Assembly: GCA_030619825.1 (NCBI GenBank)
Contig: JAUXAS010000014.1
Location: 1-15,422, forward strand
Direction: 5' to 3'
Origin: Hadesarchaea archaeon
Lineage (GTDB): Archaea > Hadarchaeota > Hadarchaeia > Hadarchaeales > Hadarchaeaceae
Length of the DNA stretch: 15,422 bases
Part shown: positions 3,164 to 15,421 of the stretch, one piece after another
How the letters are laid out: each line of letters begins with the position of its first letter
Numbering within the stretch: the first letter of the stretch is position 1
The notes under the pieces: generated by a model
The model's input: only the letters and a program-made list of their open reading frames with translations
Database searches by the model: none
Told to the model about the DNA's origin: nothing
Program-made: the position numbers and the translations under genes

Positions 3164-4543
3164 TCAAGTCAGAATCAAGCATGCTATATCCATAACATTT
3201 GTTCTAGTAGGTCCTGTTATCAAGAGGTCCCCAATCTCTTTAAAGAAGCTGTGAGAGTCATTTCGCTCGAGATGAAGCACGGGATCGAGTTTAAGGTGCC
3301 TCGCCTTTTCAAGGGTGAAGCTATCCGCGACAGCTCCGGCAGCATCGGTAGGGCCGTCTATGCCGTCCGTGCTGAAGGAGGCTACGGTCGCGTTTCCCAA
3401 GCCCGATATCCCGATTGCGGCACTGAGCACGAGTTCCTGATTGCGCCCGCCTATACCCTCTCCTTTTACCGTCACCGTCGTCTCCCCTCCGGAAATCAGG
3501 AGCGCGGGCCTTGATACAGGCTTGCTTGCTTCTATCACACCTTTCGCAATAGTGGCAAGATGTGCGCCGACCTCCCTCGCTTCGCCCTGCATGGTTGTCG
3601 TGAGTATCGAAACGTTAAAGCCATGAGATTTTCCGACCTCCATAGCTGCTCTGATCGCGTCCGCATTACTCGCTATGATCTCATAGAATGTGTTCAGAAA
3701 ATATTTCCCCCCGGGTTTTGGTGTTTCGGGCACCTTTTCTTCTGCCCCCTTTTTTAAGTGTTTTAAAATGTTTTTCGGCGCCTTCTCAATGAGCCCATAT
3801 TTCTCGATTACTGCCAGTGCATCTGAAAATGTCATCGGATCAGGATAGGTCGGGCCGCTCGCGATGGTATCCAACCTATCCCCGACCACATCCGAGATGA
3901 GCAGGGTGATGACTCTCGCGGGATGGGCTGCTTTGGCCAGCTGGCCGCCCTTTATCCTAGAAAGGTGTTTCCTGACGGCATTCACCTCTTGGATCATCGC
4001 CCCGCTTTTGAGGAGCAATTGGGTTGTTTCCCGCAATTCATCGAGAGAAATCCCCTCCGCAGGGAGAGTGATAAGGGCCGAGCCGCCCCCGCTCAAGAGA
4101 CACACGACGAGGTCCTGAGGCTCGAGGTCGCTAACGAGATTGATCATCTCTTCAGCGCCCTTTACTCCCGCTCTAGTGGGGAGGGGGTGGCCAGCTTCGA
4201 CGAGCTTGATCTTTCTCGTTCGATATACCGATGCCGTGCCCTCGGGGACGTTGACCACGCCGCTCGTGATCCTGTCTCCAAATATCTCCTCAAACACTTC
4301 AGCCATATTCCCGCTCGCCTTCCCACCCCCCACCACGATGATCTTTCCAACCTCTGAAAGGTCAAGCTCGTAAGTTCCAATTTTCAGGCATTCCCCATCG
4401 ATTCTCACCCGACTCCGCATTTTGGAAGAGGGATCGGCGGATTCGATCGCCTTGTTTACAAGCTCGATGAGGATTTGCCTCGCTCGCCGAAGTTCAGGGG
4501 TTTTGGCGTTGTCGAGCAATTGCTTCTCGTTTTTAATCGACAT
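3164..4543 (-). CDS. Glycerate 2-kinase, MOFRL/TtuD (class II glycerate kinase) family
   Basis: Motifs VVGGGKA, EAGHPLP, LLSGGGSAL, NAVRKHLSRIKGG, ISDVVGD...IASGPT, SGGETTV, GGRNQE, TDGIDGPTDAAGA, TGPTRTNVMD. Confidence 0.93.
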   Translation of the reverse strand: MSIKNEKQLLDNAKTPELRRARQILIELVNKAIESADPSSKMRSRVRIDGECLKIGTYELDLSEVGKIIVVGGGKASGNMAEVFEEIFGDRITSGVVNVPEGTASVYRTRKIKLVEAGHPLPTRAGVKGAEEMINLVSDLEPQDLVVCLLSGGGSALITLPAEGISLDELRETTQLLLKSGAMIQEVNAVRKHLSRIKGGQLAKAAHPARVITLLISDVVGDRLDTIASGPTYPDPMTFSDALAVIEKYGLIEKAPKNILKHLKKGAEEKVPETPKPGGKYFLNTFYEIIASNADAIRAAMEVGKSHGFNVSILTTTMQGEAREVGAHLATIAKGVIEASKPVSRPALLISGGETTVTVKGEGIGGRNQELVLSAAIGISGLGNATVASFSTDGIDGPTDAAGAVADSFTLEKARHLKLDPVLHLERNDSHSFFKEIGDLLITGPTRTNVMDIACLILT

Positions 4544-4632
4544 CTGCTCACACTTGCAATATTTGAGCTAAGTTAAATAGAAATGAGGTGTTGATGAAAT
4601 GAGAAATTTCTTAAACGAACAGATTTTCCTTA

Positions 4633-6183
4633 CTACCTTGGTTGGATCCCTATCTTTGGTTTCTTGAAAATTTTTTCATCTATGACTTTAAGTTCGCTCG
4701 AGACGGTTGGAGAAAAATCCATTTTATTGAGGATATCCCTTTCCAAATCGACTCCAGGCGCGATTTCCTCTAACACGAGGCCGTTTTTACCGAGCCTGAA
4801 AACGGCCCTCTCGGTGATGTATAAAACTTCCTTTCCGAGCTTCCTCGCGTACTCGCCGCTGAACGTGATGTGCTCTACGTTTTTCACAAATTTCTTGACC
4901 GATCCATCTTGCAAAATTTTCAATCTCCCACCACCGACTTCTATTTGAAGGCCCTTCGCGGTTAAGGTCCCGCAAAAGACGACTTTTTTGGCATTCTGAG
5001 TGATATCGATAAAACCACCACAACCTGCGAACCTCCCACCAAATTTGCTCACGTTGACATTTCCCTTTTCGTCAACTTGGGCCATACCCAAAAAGCTCAA
5101 GTCCAGTCCTCCCCCCTGATAGAAATCGAATTGATATGGTTGATCGATGAGCGCTTCGTAGTTTATTCCAACCCCGAAATCCAAACCAGAAAGGGGGACA
5201 CCACCTATCACACCTGACTCGACCGTCAGCGTGAATTTTTCGTAAACGTTTTCCTCAATTGCGACATTGGCGACCTCTGTTGCCATCCCGATACCAAGAT
5301 TTATAATATCTCCGGATTTTATTTCCATAGCCGCCCTCCTCCCAATGACTTTTCTCTCGTTGAGCGGCCTAGGTTCAACCTTAGAGGGAGGAATTATCGT
5401 TTCGCCGCTGATCGCTGGATTATAAGATTCACGAACAGTTTGCCACCCGTACTCGGGTTTCGAAGCTACTACAACGTAGTCTACGAGAATACCCGGAATT
5501 TCAACCTTCCTGCTTGGTAGGGATTTAGTAACCTTTTCCACTTGAACGGCCACGGTCCCTCCGCAATTTTTTGTCGCTTGAGCTATGGATAGGTTTTCTA
5601 GGGTCACCCCTTCCTTTTCCATCGATATGTTGCCCTTTTCATCCGAAGTTGTTCCGCGGATTAAAGCAAAATCTACGGGGAAAGTTTTGTAACTCAGATA
5701 TTCTTTGCCATCGATCTCGATCAGTTTGACCATATCTTCCTCTTTCTTGGTGATATCGTTTACTTTACCTCCTTCGACTCGAGGATCTACAAACGTGTAC
5801 AAACCTGTGTGCGTTATCAGATATGGCCTCTTTGCGGCAATATCCCTAAATAATTGAGAAATCACACCTTGTGGAAAGCAGTAGGCGATAACTTTGTTAT
5901 TCATTATCAGTTCACTTGTCAACGGGGCTTTTCCGGAATGAGTAAATATCAATTTTTTAATAAGATGTTCAATACCCAGGAGATCGAATCCCACTTCTTT
6001 TCCCCCGGACTGGCCCGCAGGCTGAACGATCGTCAGATCTCTCGGTTTACCCGTTTTGAGAAATCTGTTCCTTAATGCGTAAAAGAGTTCAAATGGAAGA
6101 TTAGTCGTTGTGAAACCGCCAGTCGCAACTGTATCTCCATCCTTTATGTGATTAATTGCTTCCTCGGCCGTCGCTACCTTCAT
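4633..6183 (-). CDS. Family I acyl-CoA:carboxylate CoA-transferase, fused alpha/beta (YdiF / propionate CoA-transferase type)
   Basis: IKDGDTVATGGF, PQGVISQLFRDIAA, GLYTFVDPR, INLGIGM, TVESG (catalytic Glu motif), QFDFYQGGGLD, NVNVSKFG, YITERAVF, EIAPGVDLERDIL. Confidence 0.92.
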   Translation of the reverse strand: MKVATAEEAINHIKDGDTVATGGFTTTNLPFELFYALRNRFLKTGKPRDLTIVQPAGQSGGKEVGFDLLGIEHLIKKLIFTHSGKAPLTSELIMNNKVIAYCFPQGVISQLFRDIAAKRPYLITHTGLYTFVDPRVEGGKVNDITKKEEDMVKLIEIDGKEYLSYKTFPVDFALIRGTTSDEKGNISMEKEGVTLENLSIAQATKNCGGTVAVQVEKVTKSLPSRKVEIPGILVDYVVVASKPEYGWQTVRESYNPAISGETIIPPSKVEPRPLNERKVIGRRAAMEIKSGDIINLGIGMATEVANVAIEENVYEKFTLTVESGVIGGVPLSGLDFGVGINYEALIDQPYQFDFYQGGGLDLSFLGMAQVDEKGNVNVSKFGGRFAGCGGFIDITQNAKKVVFCGTLTAKGLQIEVGGGRLKILQDGSVKKFVKNVEHITFSGEYARKLGKEVLYITERAVFRLGKNGLVLEEIAPGVDLERDILNKMDFSPTVSSELKVIDEKIFKKPKIGIQPR

Positions 6184-6217
6184 CTTCGACCCCGAATCTT
6201 ACCTTTTTGCTATTTTT

Positions 6218-7183
6218 CTAAACGTATTCTCCGGCACTTATGTTTATCAACTGTCCGGTTATGTAACTCCCTTCGGTCGCCAAAAACGCTACCAACTTCG
6301 CGACTTCCTCCGGTTCCCCTCTCCTACCAAGCGGAATTTTTGATAACCTATCACGGAGCATGCCCTGGGGCATGGCATCGGTCATCCTAGTTTTTATGCA
6401 ACCGGGTAATACTGCATTGCAAAGTATGTTGTACTGCGCATACTCCAGCGCGACCGTCTTTGTAAGTGAATTTACCCCTCCTTTCGCTGCCGCATAGTTT
6501 GCCTGCCCCGTGGCTCCATCGATGGCGCTCATGGAGCTTACGTTTACTATATTTCCCCCGCCCTGCTGGATCATGTAAGGTAGCACTGCCCTAGTGCAGT
6601 TATAAGTTCCAGTCAGATCTACATCGATGACCCTTTGCCACTGCTCTGGAGCCATGTTGACGAGAAGCTTATCTATGTTCATGCCGGCATTATTCACCAA
6701 AACGTCCACTCTGCCCAACTTCTCCACGATTTCCTTCACCATCTTCTCGACTTCCTCGTATTTTGAGACATCGCCCTTGATGAAGATCGCCTCCCTGCCG
6801 CCTTTTTTGATTTCCTCCATAGCTTTCACTCCTTCATCCGGCAAGTCGTGAAAGGCATTCATTACGATGTTAAAACCTCTTTTGGCCAACTCCAAAGCTA
6901 TCGCTTTGCCTATCCCCCTGCTAGCACCCGTAATTAACGCGACTTTGCTGACCTCCTTTTTCTCCTTTATCTCAGGAACGAAGAAGTTGAATTCCCCATA
7001 GTCTGTTACCCTCTTCTCGATTCTCCCCTCCATCCCTACCTTCAAAATGTTGTAGTGCTCATCCTCTATCCTGACCAACTGACGTTTTCCTTTCTCGTCT
7101 TCAACGATTCCGGATTTCGTGGACTTTTTATAAGGAGGCGTTGGGACGGTCACATCCGTATAACTGATTAATTTTACCTTCAT
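6218..7183 (-). CDS. FabG/PhaB-like 3-oxoacyl-CoA reductase (SDR) with a ~75-aa N-terminal extension resembling a DUF35 OB-fold
   Basis: SDR motifs TGASRGIG, LVNNAG, NVSS, GQANYAAAK, PGCIKTRMT, IPLGRRGEPEEVA. Extension KLISYTDVTVPTPPY...GIVEDEKGKRQLVRI...LKVGMEGRIE. The ATG lies 2 nt after the thiolase stop with a GAGGT SD. The OB-fold call is less certain than the SDR call. Confidence 0.88.
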   Translation of the reverse strand: MKVKLISYTDVTVPTPPYKKSTKSGIVEDEKGKRQLVRIEDEHYNILKVGMEGRIEKRVTDYGEFNFFVPEIKEKKEVSKVALITGASRGIGKAIALELAKRGFNIVMNAFHDLPDEGVKAMEEIKKGGREAIFIKGDVSKYEEVEKMVKEIVEKLGRVDVLVNNAGMNIDKLLVNMAPEQWQRVIDVDLTGTYNCTRAVLPYMIQQGGGNIVNVSSMSAIDGATGQANYAAAKGGVNSLTKTVALEYAQYNILCNAVLPGCIKTRMTDAMPQGMLRDRLSKIPLGRRGEPEEVAKLVAFLATEGSYITGQLINISAGEYV

Positions 7184-7185
7184 CT

Positions 7186-8331
7186 TTACCTCTCCAATAT
7201 CGAAACTATCGCAACGGAACCGGTCCCGCCGTGTCCTTCGATTATGGCGGTTTTTCGATCCGGAACCTGTCTCTCACCGGCTTCTCCTCGGAGTTGCAAG
7301 AACATTTCCACCATGGTTCCCACGTGTGTCGCACCCACGGGATGTCCTTTGGCTTTGAGCCCGCCACTCACATTCACGGGGAGAGACCCGTCGAACATGA
7401 CCACGCCCTCTCTGACCAATTTGGCGCCTTCACCTTTCTTGGCAAGACCTAGCGCTTCGTAACACATGGGCTCAACTGGAGTGAAAGCATCGTGGACTTC
7501 TACGATATCTACATCTTTTGGACTCTTCCCCGCTTCTTTGTAAGCCTGATCCGCTGCTCTTTTCGAGCAAAGTAAAAACGTTGGATCCTCCCTCTCTATT
7601 GCCAACAGGTAATCGTGGGCCACGCCCATTCCTTTGATAAAGACCGGCGTGTCGGTATACTTCTTCGGATCGGCGCTCAGCAAGACAGAAGCGGCGCCAT
7701 CACTGATCGTGGAGCAATGGAACAATCTGATCGGATCGGCGATCATTCTCGAGTTCATCACTCCCTCTTTCGTGATATCTTTGTGGAAATGAGCCCACGG
7801 GTTTCTGAATGCATTTTTATGGTTCTTAACCGAGATATCCGCCCAGTCATCTTCCGTGACGTCATACTTGTTGGCGTACAGTCTTATCAGCAAGGCGTAT
7901 GCGCCGGGTTGGGTTATTCCGTACTTTCGCTCCTCGGGAGAGGACCCGTGAGTCAAAAATTCTGTGATTCTGTCGATTCCGAACTTGTTCATCTTCTCAA
8001 AGCCCACGACAAGGACGTTCTTCGCCTCCCCCCTCTCGATCATATTCTTAGCTCGATAGATCGCTATGCTCCCGCTCACGCAGGCCGATTCAACTTTGAA
8101 ACCATAGGCGTCGGGGTTTCCCAAATATTCCCATGCCAAAGTTCCAGTTTGGTGTTGTTCGGAAAAGGCATTGTCTACACAACTCACGATGACACAGTCT
8201 ATCTCTTTGGGAGAAATGCCATTCTCAACGTTTTTCAAACAGCCGTCCATCGCCTCCTTGATGAGATCTGGAGTATCTTGTTCTAACACGCCAAATTTCG
8301 TGTGTCCGTAAGAGACAATTCCCACTTCCAT
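7186..8331 (-). CDS. Archaeal-type (SCP-x-like) thiolase / acetyl-CoA C-acyltransferase
   Basis: VGIVSYGHTKFG, KVESACVSGS (nucleophile Cys), VLVVGFEKM, SVKNHKNAFRNPWAHF, CSTISDGAAS, VEVHDAFT, VNVSGGLKAKGHPVGAT, QLRGEAGERQV. Confidence 0.93.
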   Translation of the reverse strand: MEVGIVSYGHTKFGVLEQDTPDLIKEAMDGCLKNVENGISPKEIDCVIVSCVDNAFSEQHQTGTLAWEYLGNPDAYGFKVESACVSGSIAIYRAKNMIERGEAKNVLVVGFEKMNKFGIDRITEFLTHGSSPEERKYGITQPGAYALLIRLYANKYDVTEDDWADISVKNHKNAFRNPWAHFHKDITKEGVMNSRMIADPIRLFHCSTISDGAASVLLSADPKKYTDTPVFIKGMGVAHDYLLAIEREDPTFLLCSKRAADQAYKEAGKSPKDVDIVEVHDAFTPVEPMCYEALGLAKKGEGAKLVREGVVMFDGSLPVNVSGGLKAKGHPVGATHVGTMVEMFLQLRGEAGERQVPDRKTAIIEGHGGTGSVAIVSILER

Positions 8332-8360: not shown

Positions 8361-8378
8361 GTTATAAATAATTTCCTA
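8361..8378 (-). promoter_or_regulatory. BRE/TATA promoter of the inserted thiolase operon
   Basis: Minus strand TAGGAAATTA-TTTATAAC, with the TATA about 30 nt upstream of the thiolase ATG and an SD-like AAGGCGA in between. Confidence 0.6.
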
Positions 8379-13906: not shown

Positions 13907-14764
13907 TTATCCCCCTATGAGCGCGTTCAGCAGCGCAAGCGTGGCCACGAGCGCTTCCTCCGTTCGAACTGTGGCGGTCCCCTGATTCGGGATCGTATTT
14001 ATGATGACGTCGAAGAGTTTGCCTGCATCGACGTCCTGGCGCTCGCAGATTTCGAAGAGGCCCGCGTAAGAGCCTCCGAAGGCCACCGCCACGCTGCGAG
14101 GGTTGCTACTCCTTATCGCCTGCACGGCTTCATATAAATTTTTGCCGTACCGCGACGTCCCTATAATATAGTCTGCTTTCAGAACTTTTAAGGCCTCTGC
14201 GAGGGTTTTCGCCCGCAGGACTTCGTAGCCCCAGTATTCACCAACTTCACTCCGGTGTACCCGCTCAATTGCGCGTTTGCCCTCACCCAAACTCTTACCG
14301 AGTCTAACCGTTACCCGCTCTCCAACGTTGAGTTTTTCGCTTGTGAAACCACGCTCACGTATCCCGAGTTCAAGCAGGCTGCCACGTTTGCCCGCATCTA
14401 CAACGACGGCTTCACGATAATCACCAGGGGAGGTCTTCTCATCCACGAGCGGGTGGTGGGGTGTGCGCAGGGGTGGAAGTAAACCCGCGTAACGGAGCTC
14501 CTTCGTGCGAGGAAAGAGAAGCTTGCGCAGGTATTGCGGTGTTTCCATATAACGCAAAAGTGTTGAGATAACCCCGACCTCGGATGCTTGATTTTTCAAG
14601 TGGGAGTCATCATCGTAATAAATGCAGACATTACCAACACGAAAGATCGCGAGCGCACGCCCGATCGAACCGATCTTGAGAGTTTTCTGTCGAAGGTCAG
14701 GCGCATCTGTAACGAGCGAGGAAGGCAGCAGCACGAAAAACGATGGGGGGATTTCAGACGTCAT
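13907..14764 (-). CDS. SPOUT-class RNA methyltransferase (MTH1 / SPOUT1-C9orf114-like)
   Basis: KIGSIGRALAIFRV...LLRYMETPQYLRK.LFP...LRYAGLLPPLRTPHH...YWGY...IGTSRYG...NTIPNQGTATVRTEEA. This family commonly lies directly upstream of L3 in archaea. Confidence 0.9.
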   Translation of the reverse strand: MTSEIPPSFFVLLPSSLVTDAPDLRQKTLKIGSIGRALAIFRVGNVCIYYDDDSHLKNQASEVGVISTLLRYMETPQYLRKLLFPRTKELRYAGLLPPLRTPHHPLVDEKTSPGDYREAVVVDAGKRGSLLELGIRERGFTSEKLNVGERVTVRLGKSLGEGKRAIERVHRSEVGEYWGYEVLRAKTLAEALKVLKADYIIGTSRYGKNLYEAVQAIRSSNPRSVAVAFGGSYAGLFEICERQDVDAGKLFDVIINTIPNQGTATVRTEEALVATLALLNALIGG

Positions 14765-14767
14765 CGC

Positions 14768-15421
14768 TTAACCCTTTGTGACTCCCACAGGTTTCAAGCG
14801 TGCGATCATTCGAGCGATGCCGGCATCGTGGCTGACCTTTACAACGCGGTCGACATCCTTGTATGCCAAGGGCGCCTCCTCAGCGATGATAGATATCTTA
14901 GCAGGGTGCACGATGATCCCCCTGCTCTCGAGTTCGCGCTTGACATCTTCTCCCAAGAATTGCCTGCGTGCGGCAGTCCGGCTCATGTGACGGCCTGAAC
15001 CGTGGGCTGTCGAAGCGAAGGTCTCCTGCATCCCTTGTTTCGTACCGACGAGCACGTATGAAGCGGTGCCCATCGTTCCAGGGATTAGCACGGGTTGCCC
15101 GACATCGCGGTAAATTGCAGGTACATCCGGATGTCCGGGCCCGAAAGCCCTCGTCGCTCCCTTACGGTGAACGTAAACTTTTCGGCGCCCGCCATCAACT
15201 TCATGCTCCTCGAGTTTTGCGATATTGTGTGCAACGTCGTAGATGATGTCCATACCCAGGCTCTCCGCATCCTTTCCGAGAACTTGCTCGAAGGACTGCC
15301 GAACCCAGTGAACGATCATCTGACGGTTTGTCCAAGCGTAGTTAGCTGCGCAGGCCATCGCCGAGAAGTAGGCTTGCCCCTCAGGCGAAGTCACGGGCAC
15401 GTTCACGAGTTCTCGATCGGG
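14768..15421 (-). CDS. rtcB: RNA-splicing ligase RtcB, C-terminal part (5' end outside the window)
   Basis: PDRELVNVP...[10 protein letters not shown]...[13 protein letters not shown]...[10 protein letters not shown]...[10 protein letters not shown]...STAHGSGR...[10 protein letters not shown]...LKPVGVTKG; frame open to the window edge. Confidence 0.96.

Follow-up and report, generated by a model that had tools for sequence, protein, structure and literature searches.

A zinc-free OB domain of the DUF35/ChsH2 type, fused to a dehydrogenase behind a thiolase of Hadarchaeota: a probable thiolase-docking module with a possible role in sugar-acid cleavage

Introduction

DUF35 proteins have been described as partners of thiolase-fold enzymes in several arrangements. 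In Methanothermococcus a complete, stand-alone DUF35 protein is found together with a thiolase and HMG-CoA synthase (6ESQ; Vogeli 2018). For Sulfolobus acidocaldarius a complex of thiolase, DUF35 protein, ketoacyl-CoA reductase and MaoC protein is reported (Saci_1121, Saci_1120, Saci_1104 and Saci_1085; bioRxiv 10.1101/2024.07.05.601840). The DUF35 part of Shy and ChsH2 is described as binding a thiolase-fold partner (PMC11321319), and the main interface between Shy and Sal is given as a helix plus the OB subdomain (PMC12329534). Fusions are also on record: DUF35 joined to Rossmann-fold domains and to hot-dog dehydratases was listed in 2010 (PMC2954200), and an HMGS-DUF35 fusion is known (PMC12960953). 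A system of a different kind is the 2-deoxyribonate cluster of Klebsiella michiganensis, which encodes a CoA-synthetase, a hydroxyacyl-CoA dehydrogenase, a thiolase, a CoA-transferase and a glycerate kinase; according to the accessible part of that paper, which does not mention DUF35, the pathway rests on mutant fitness and not on enzyme assays (PMC6365646).

The locus described here resembles each of these systems in part. As in the reported Sulfolobus complex, an archaeal thiolase, a DUF35-type protein and a FabG-like short-chain dehydrogenase/reductase (SDR) come together. The Sulfolobus parts, however, are separate, include a dehydratase and work reductively with NADPH, whereas here an OB domain without Zn ribbon is fused to the SDR, MaoC was not found and a CoA-transferase and a glycerate kinase follow. 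ChsH2-Ltp2 (6OK1), which supplies the best structural match, and Shy-Sal (9MYR) are alike in that a DUF35 domain fused to a neighbouring pathway enzyme docks the latter on a thiolase-fold dimer; they are described with a full DUF35 carrying a Zn finger, a fused MaoC hydratase and a Cys-less aldolase partner, whereas the thiolase here keeps C84, HDAF and GHP. The Methanothermococcus complex gives the best sequence match and has the same thiolase type, but its mevalonate set exists as a separate copy in the genome studied here. With the Klebsiella cluster our locus shares dehydrogenase, thiolase, CoA-transferase and glycerate kinase, a likeness of activities and not of compared sequences; the Klebsiella cluster is bacterial and contains in addition the CoA-synthetase, a lactonase and MFS transporters, all absent from the operon here.

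A first-pass annotation of this DNA, made from the sequence by eye, knew of no characterised example of the Zn-less OB-SDR architecture. DUF35-Rossmann fusions have been in print since 2010 (PMC2954200), so that the architecture is not entirely new to the literature; neither the OB-SDR form without zinc nor this operon turned up in a literature search that most subscription papers lay outside. DUF35 tethering and a thiolase/DUF35/FabG complex are likewise already published; new are the zinc-free form and its possible job in this locus.

Results

A four-gene set within a ribosomal-protein cluster

The window, i.e. the whole stretch of 15,422 nucleotides that was analysed, carries on its minus strand a set of four genes inserted into a ribosomal-protein cluster. 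The DNA is archaeal, and close homologues bear Hadarchaeota or Hadesarchaea labels in the databases. The features are listed in the direction of transcription.

8362 to 8376, minus strand: candidate BRE/TATA-like element, 30 nt upstream of the thiolase start (by eye)
7186 to 8331, minus strand: archaeal/SCP2-type thiolase, 381 aa, with C84, HDAF at 280, GHP at 329 and the motif E365-x-H367-GG
7188 to 7195, minus strand: GGAGAGGT, a Shine-Dalgarno-like motif that overlaps the 3' end of the thiolase gene (read from the sequence)
6218 to 7183, minus strand: OB-SDR gene, open reading frame of 321 aa
6968 to 7183, minus strand: predicted DUF35/ChsH2-type OB domain without Zn ribbon, residues 1-72 (profile, model and structure alignment)
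6947 to 6967, minus strand: short charged linker, residues 73-79 (sequence; pLDDT below 50 at 74-76)
6218 to 6946, minus strand: FabG-like SDR domain, residues 80-321
4633 to 6183, minus strand: family I YdiF/Pct-like CoA-transferase, 516 aa (match to 2AHU, E 2e-137)
4572 to 4580, minus strand: TATA-like CTATTTAAC upstream of the glycerate kinase (by eye)
3164 to 4543, minus strand: MOFRL-family glycerate 2-kinase homologue, 459 aa (profile matches)

The insertion (3164-8331) lies between an S17-like and an L14-like gene, both named by eye. Kinase or operon occupies the same ribosomal-protein site in five relatives (G015, G017, G018, G019 and G020) and is located elsewhere in other genera. At 13907-15406 on the minus strand, upstream of an L3-like gene, the window encodes a putative RNA methyltransferase (PF02598) and, as named by eye, the C-terminal part of an RtcB-like protein, both of them ordinary. 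Contigs from RNA libraries (three runs of one study) span parts of the operon and two bridge the OB-SDR junction; carry-over of DNA into these libraries is possible.

The N-terminal extension is coding sequence

The SDR profile PF00106 matches residues 80-271 of the OB-SDR protein (E 5e-63), so that 79 residues precede the SDR. The motif GGAGAGGT is located 4-11 nt upstream of the ATG, and no in-frame ATG, GTG or TTG occurs between codons 52 and 95. For codons 2-71 the dN/dS ratio was 0-0.26 in seven of nine orthologue comparisons, the remaining two being saturated, and 33 of 45 candidate homologues (319-321 aa) consist of extension plus SDR. Taken together, these four observations indicate that the extension is translated. 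An internal start near VSKVALITG, which the first-pass annotation had named among the cases that would undo its proposal, was ruled out because there is no start codon at that point. Its description of the gene was accurate: it had reported about 75 extra residues ahead of the Rossmann fold, free of Cys and hence of a Zn ribbon, then a charged linker, in a gene right behind the thiolase, and we find 79 residues with the DUF35-like pattern that it had quoted and no Cys, the linker at residues 73-79 and a gap of 2 nt between the thiolase stop and the OB-SDR start.

Residues 1-72 correspond to the OB half of DUF35

On the basis of profile and model comparison, residues 1-72 are confirmed as a predicted conserved OB fold of the DUF35/ChsH2 type that lacks both the zinc ribbon and the N-terminal helix, in agreement with the fold originally proposed by eye. 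Single-sequence searches were silent: residues 1-75 of the window protein alone gave no match in Pfam, NCBIfam or PDB sequences. The complete window protein gave no match to PF01796 (gathering cut-off 27.1 bits), and its relatives all remained below the cut-off (best 20.3 bits), with sub-cut-off matches in 2 of 28 relatives in one set and 5 of 24 in another (best E 5e-4). A profile built from 20 relatives gave three matches in the PDB, led by the DUF35 protein in 6ESQ (E 2e-4), with the ChsH2 chain in 6OK1 second (E 0.023). When the same profile was run on 13,365 ORF segments from the genome to which the window belongs, one significant match appeared besides the domain itself, the canonical DUF35 gene (E 9e-6).

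The AF2 model of the domain has a pLDDT of 91.3 and begins with a strand. Structure alignment against 48,161 chains ranked ChsH2 of 6OK1 first (Z 9.2, rmsd 2.3, 72 aligned) and the DUF35 protein of 6ESQ second (Z 9.0, rmsd 2.0, 70 aligned), followed by Trf, PhlABC, benzoylsuccinyl-CoA thiolase and Sal-Shy chains (Z 7.7-8.4). The N-terminal domain does model as an OB fold. Foldseek returned nothing at E<=0.001; in its ranking DUF2500 stood first (TMq 0.62) and DUF35 chains held ranks 2-6 (TMq 0.73-0.76); DUF2500 was dropped owing to the lower TM-score and a Z of 6.2 versus 9.0-9.2 for DUF35/ChsH2. A Pfam match to HA70_C (E 0.049, residues 54-107) was discarded as chance since it spans the junction of the two domains and structure comparison favours DUF35. 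In the ESM Atlas the domain led to OB_ChsH2_C clusters at 0.82-0.83, a lead below the tool's 0.9 mark, and the full-length model returned SDRs alone.

A canonical DUF35 protein has an N-terminal helix and a CxxC..CxxC zinc ribbon, neither of which is present here, and a thiolase-fold gene next to it, which is present; this thiolase has no C-terminal extension. The OB domain probably works like DUF35, yet it is not a canonical member, having no Zn ribbon and scoring below the PF01796 cut-off.

A thiolase gene accompanies the domain in every locus read

A search of 1.84 billion representatives yielded 24 matches: nine SDR fusions, of which one is a weak fragment, three fusions to a 3-hydroxyacyl-CoA dehydrogenase (3HCDH) and 12 short forms without a second domain, one of which has an N-terminal sequence that continues into 3HCDH in locus L027. 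One of the SDR-fusion clusters is named from Fervidicoccaceae. SDR and 3HCDH are two unrelated enzymes for one 3-keto/3-hydroxyacyl-CoA step, and both are fused to the OB domain. Among 66 genomes of the phylum the domain is present in 12; a thirteenth match is a canonical DUF35 protein. A locus scan with a four-sequence alignment gave one locus in genome contigs and nine in metagenomes, the contexts of Bathyarchaeia- and Fervidicoccaceae-labelled members lying outside it. Seven of the nine metagenome loci encode stand-alone OB domains, each ending at a stop codon, while 3HCDH fusions are encoded in the other two.

The thiolase lies directly upstream of the OB domain in all 12 phylum genomes and all nine metagenome loci; these 21 loci are not independent, as L025/L026 and L029/L030 are duplicates and the metagenome loci represent about five distinct types. 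In G019 the contig carries the 3' end of the thiolase only. The thiolase is thus the constant partner, whether the domain stands alone or is fused to SDR or 3HCDH, and further OB-SDR fusions next to thiolases, which the first-pass annotation had suggested looking for, do occur in the phylum genomes. In a domain tree built from 40 rows and 71 columns, with stars on 12 of its 37 branches, the 38 Zn-less domains are separated from two canonical ones; the number of fusion events is not countable from it because the tree is poorly resolved.

Two kinds of gene neighbourhood can be distinguished. In 11 of the 66 genomes thiolase, OB-SDR and CoA-transferase follow in this order. In G038 and the metagenome loci, thiolases of a sister clade with HDCF/CNVGG motifs are found among sugar aminotransferases, UDP-GlcNAc 3-dehydrogenase and hexapeptide-repeat acyltransferases. 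Such nucleotide-sugar/glycosylation clusters with thiolase and Zn-less OB domain (alone, SDR- or 3HCDH-fused) are located at L015 6133-12774, L025 5853-8012, L028 3262-6068, L029 5269-8116 and L033 3280-7219, and one hexapeptide acyltransferase in them passes an LpxD-like cut-off. A supply of 3-hydroxybutyryl-CoA as an acyl donor for sugars is plausible in these clusters, with 3-hydroxybutyryl or acetoacetyl sugar acylation as a possible outcome; the literature on hydroxybutyryl sugars gave no useful support for this idea.

Thiolase and SDR

The thiolase has the nucleophile C84, HDAF at 280 and GHP at 329; a second Cys (as in HDCF) and the usual C-terminal acid/base motif are absent. It is of the same type as the 6ESQ thiolase (E 8e-57), and an ESM Atlas query gave generic thiolases. 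Among the homologues listed (best 120 of 182 matches), ExHGG is present in all 120 and HDAF, which is known too in 7YVY and BbsB, in 119; the 120 include MSBL1- and Bathyarchaeia-labelled proteins. In residues 333-369 of the thiolase (7186-8331, minus strand) E365-x-H367-GG is invariant and GATH occurs in 57 of 120, again among the matches listed. E365 aligns with a His of benzoylsuccinyl-CoA thiolase. The ExHGG motif is a hint of a special substrate.

The SDR motifs are intact (TGASRGIG 85, NNAG 164, S217, YAAAK 230), as in classical FabG-like enzymes. The domain scores above the cut-off of NF009466 and misses those of the FabG/PhaB equivalogs (TIGR01830, 269 versus 297.75 bits; TIGR01829, 229 versus 302.1 bits). 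An acidic residue after beta-2 is the mark of NAD-type SDRs. This Asp is present in 26 of 34 close homologues; the window's own SDR belongs to the eight without it and keeps the Arg of GASRG. The cofactor loop (residues 108-113; 6845-6862, minus strand) reads NDL/SDI in the 26 and NAxHD in the eight. Loop type and OB-domain identity do not match up (P0004, 97%, with Asp; P0027, 77%, without), a pattern which, judged from the sequences, may reflect a repeated switch or recombination.

CoA-transferase, glycerate kinase and genome content

A full-length CoA-transferase is present in exactly the 11 operon genomes and in none of the 55 others. In nine of the 11, which belong to several genera, the glycerate kinase follows it, completing a cluster of dehydrogenase, thiolase, CoA-transferase and glycerate kinase as in the Klebsiella pathway; of the other two, one lies on a contig that stops too soon, and in G028 no glycerate kinase was found. 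The kinase also occurs in 11 of the 55 non-operon genomes, twice at contig ends. TATA-like boxes similar to CTATTTAAC precede it in seven of seven relatives read (by eye), the gap before it measures 415-460 bp in two genomes, and in G038, which lacks the operon, it stands beside an aldehyde:ferredoxin oxidoreductase gene. From its own TATA-like box, the wide gaps, its absence in G028 and its location in G038, the kinase may serve glyceraldehyde oxidation instead. Four relatives have genes for aldehyde:ferredoxin oxidoreductase at a distance of up to about 5 kb from the operon (L016 13031-15874, L017 429-2255, L019 2-1621 and L021 6543-6767), two of them confirmed and two named by eye, that of G018 being a remnant. 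In G031 a ribokinase-like gene is also near the operon.

The CoA-transferase search matched 823 plasmid records. None of the three bacterial homologues that were read (51-55% identity) is accompanied by a glycerate kinase: the 51% identical one occurs with a 3-hydroxybutyrate dehydrogenase and phaC, another with a MaoC gene, and the third has uninformative neighbours.

MaoC (PF01575), crotonase, acyl-CoA dehydrogenase and class III PHA synthase were not found in the window's genome (G000, 89% complete). HMG-CoA synthase, a thiolase and DUF35 do form a set of their own in it, divided between the ends of two contigs: one (C41) carries HMG-CoA synthase and the N-terminal part of the thiolase, the other (C9) the C-terminal part and the canonical DUF35 gene, and the two likely represent one mevalonate operon broken by assembly. 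With these enzymes not found and the mevalonate set elsewhere, the operon gives the impression of a self-contained pathway linking one free 3-hydroxy acid with two acyl-CoAs.

An acetate-CoA ligase homologue adjoins the operon or lies one gene off in three relatives read; this is little informative, as the ligase is above cut-off in 49 of the 66 genomes. In G000 there was no match to PF00501 and no full ligase copy was found; an 84-aa N-terminal piece (TIGR02188) lies within contig C21 (4086-4340). DeoC passes its cut-off in 21 of the 55 genomes without the operon and in a single one of the 11 that have it, a weak contrast between kin that are not independent. No deoxyribonate source or transporter was identified near the operon, and the window contains no CoA-synthetase, lactonase or transporter.

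Discussion

Judging from its fold and constant neighbour, the OB domain probably acts as small subunit to the thiolase encoded next to it and would, by binding this thiolase, keep the dehydrogenase close. This is made less secure by the missing helix and Zn finger, which form part of known DUF35-thiolase interfaces. The channelling proposed in the first-pass annotation is weaker than stated there: for Shy-Sal, the nearest tethered precedent, the flexible link was judged inconsistent with direct channelling (PMC12329534), whereas the OB-SDR linker here has about 7 residues.

Concerning direction and substrate we lean, with less assurance, towards oxidation followed by thiolysis, acting on the CoA ester of a sugar acid, with 2-deoxyribonyl-CoA as the most probable substrate. 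The CoA-transferase would activate the free acid, the SDR would oxidise C3 of the CoA ester, and the thiolase would split the 3-keto ester into acetyl-CoA (glycolyl-CoA in the case of a 2-hydroxy acid) and glyceryl-CoA; the CoA-transferase would then recover CoA from glyceryl-CoA and the glycerate kinase would form 2-phosphoglycerate. Thiolysis is exergonic and the oxidation endergonic. By means of the tether the former would pull the latter, the mirror image of the originally proposed logic. We favour this direction because thiolase, dehydrogenase, CoA-transferase and glycerate kinase correspond to four of the five enzymes proposed for deoxyribonate in Klebsiella (PMC6365646), and it is backed by the NAD-type Asp of most close SDR homologues and, weakly, by the lower share of DeoC among the operon genomes. 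The deoxyribonate reading is weakened in that this correspondence is one of activity alone, that the window SDR itself lacks the Asp, that the kinase seems to be promoted separately and that the three bacterial transferase homologues read come without glycerate kinase.

The same tether could serve C4 catabolism. The substrate would then be (R)-3-hydroxybutyrate: after its activation by the CoA-transferase and its oxidation by the SDR, the thiolase would form two acetyl-CoA, with the kinase as a bystander. The YdiF/Pct type of the transferase, its homologue beside a 3-hydroxybutyrate dehydrogenase and phaC, the scores of the SDR on FabG/PhaB models and the kinase's apparent promoter all suit this route. 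We nevertheless consider it unlikely, given that the kinase is directly next in nine of 11 genomes from several genera and that the thiolase is set apart by ExHGG in every homologue among the matches listed.

Condensation of acetyl-CoA pulled by reduction, as first proposed for this locus, would release 3-hydroxybutyrate as an electron sink or supply lipid or PHA precursors. The Sulfolobus complex is reported to run that way (bioRxiv 10.1101/2024.07.05.601840), and an SDR that keeps the GASRG Arg without the NAD-type Asp is in line with it. For the operon, however, this direction is doubtful and in our view rather unlikely: dehydratase, acyl-CoA dehydrogenase and PHA synthase were not found in the 89% complete genome, the kinase is left unexplained, and most close SDR homologues look NAD-type. 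It is a better match to the HDCF/CNVGG sister clade, whose setting of sugar aminotransferases and hexapeptide acyltransferases makes a 3-hydroxybutyryl-CoA donor plausible.

That the OB domain tethers nothing, but binds acyl-CoA for the SDR, as proposed for the DUF35 family (PMC2954200), or only aids folding of the thiolase, the fusion being a by-product of gene adjacency, is improbable: the missing helix and Zn finger, the stand-alone forms without a reductase alongside and the reported failure of Sulfolobus thiolase and DUF35 to express singly (bioRxiv 10.1101/2024.07.05.601840) would agree with it, but the domain is fused to dehydrogenases of two unrelated kinds that share one step, scattered over its (poorly resolved) tree, and the Shy DUF35 is described as needed for partner binding and dispensable for catalysis (PMC11321319).

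Returning to docking on the thiolase with oxidation before cleavage, the complete picture is possible and we put it forward with reserve: a metal-free OB domain of 70 residues would be a transferable tag for docking on thiolases, joined to SDR and to 3HCDH on separate occasions, which in Hadarchaeota forms the core of an archaeal acyl-CoA pathway in which 2-deoxyribonate or a related aldonate is cleaved to acetyl- or glycolyl-CoA and glycerate via an ExHGG (Glu/His-loop) thiolase. If the binding holds true, it would define a minimal DUF35 unit without zinc and helix and provide a short tag by which enzymes can be attached to archaeal thiolases, and a single scaffold would serve 3-ketoacyl-CoA chemistry in either direction. 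If the proposed substrate is right, thiolase chemistry would extend to polyhydroxy substrates, and DNA-derived or other sugar acids would be a concrete carbon source for the uncultured Hadarchaeota of the subsurface.
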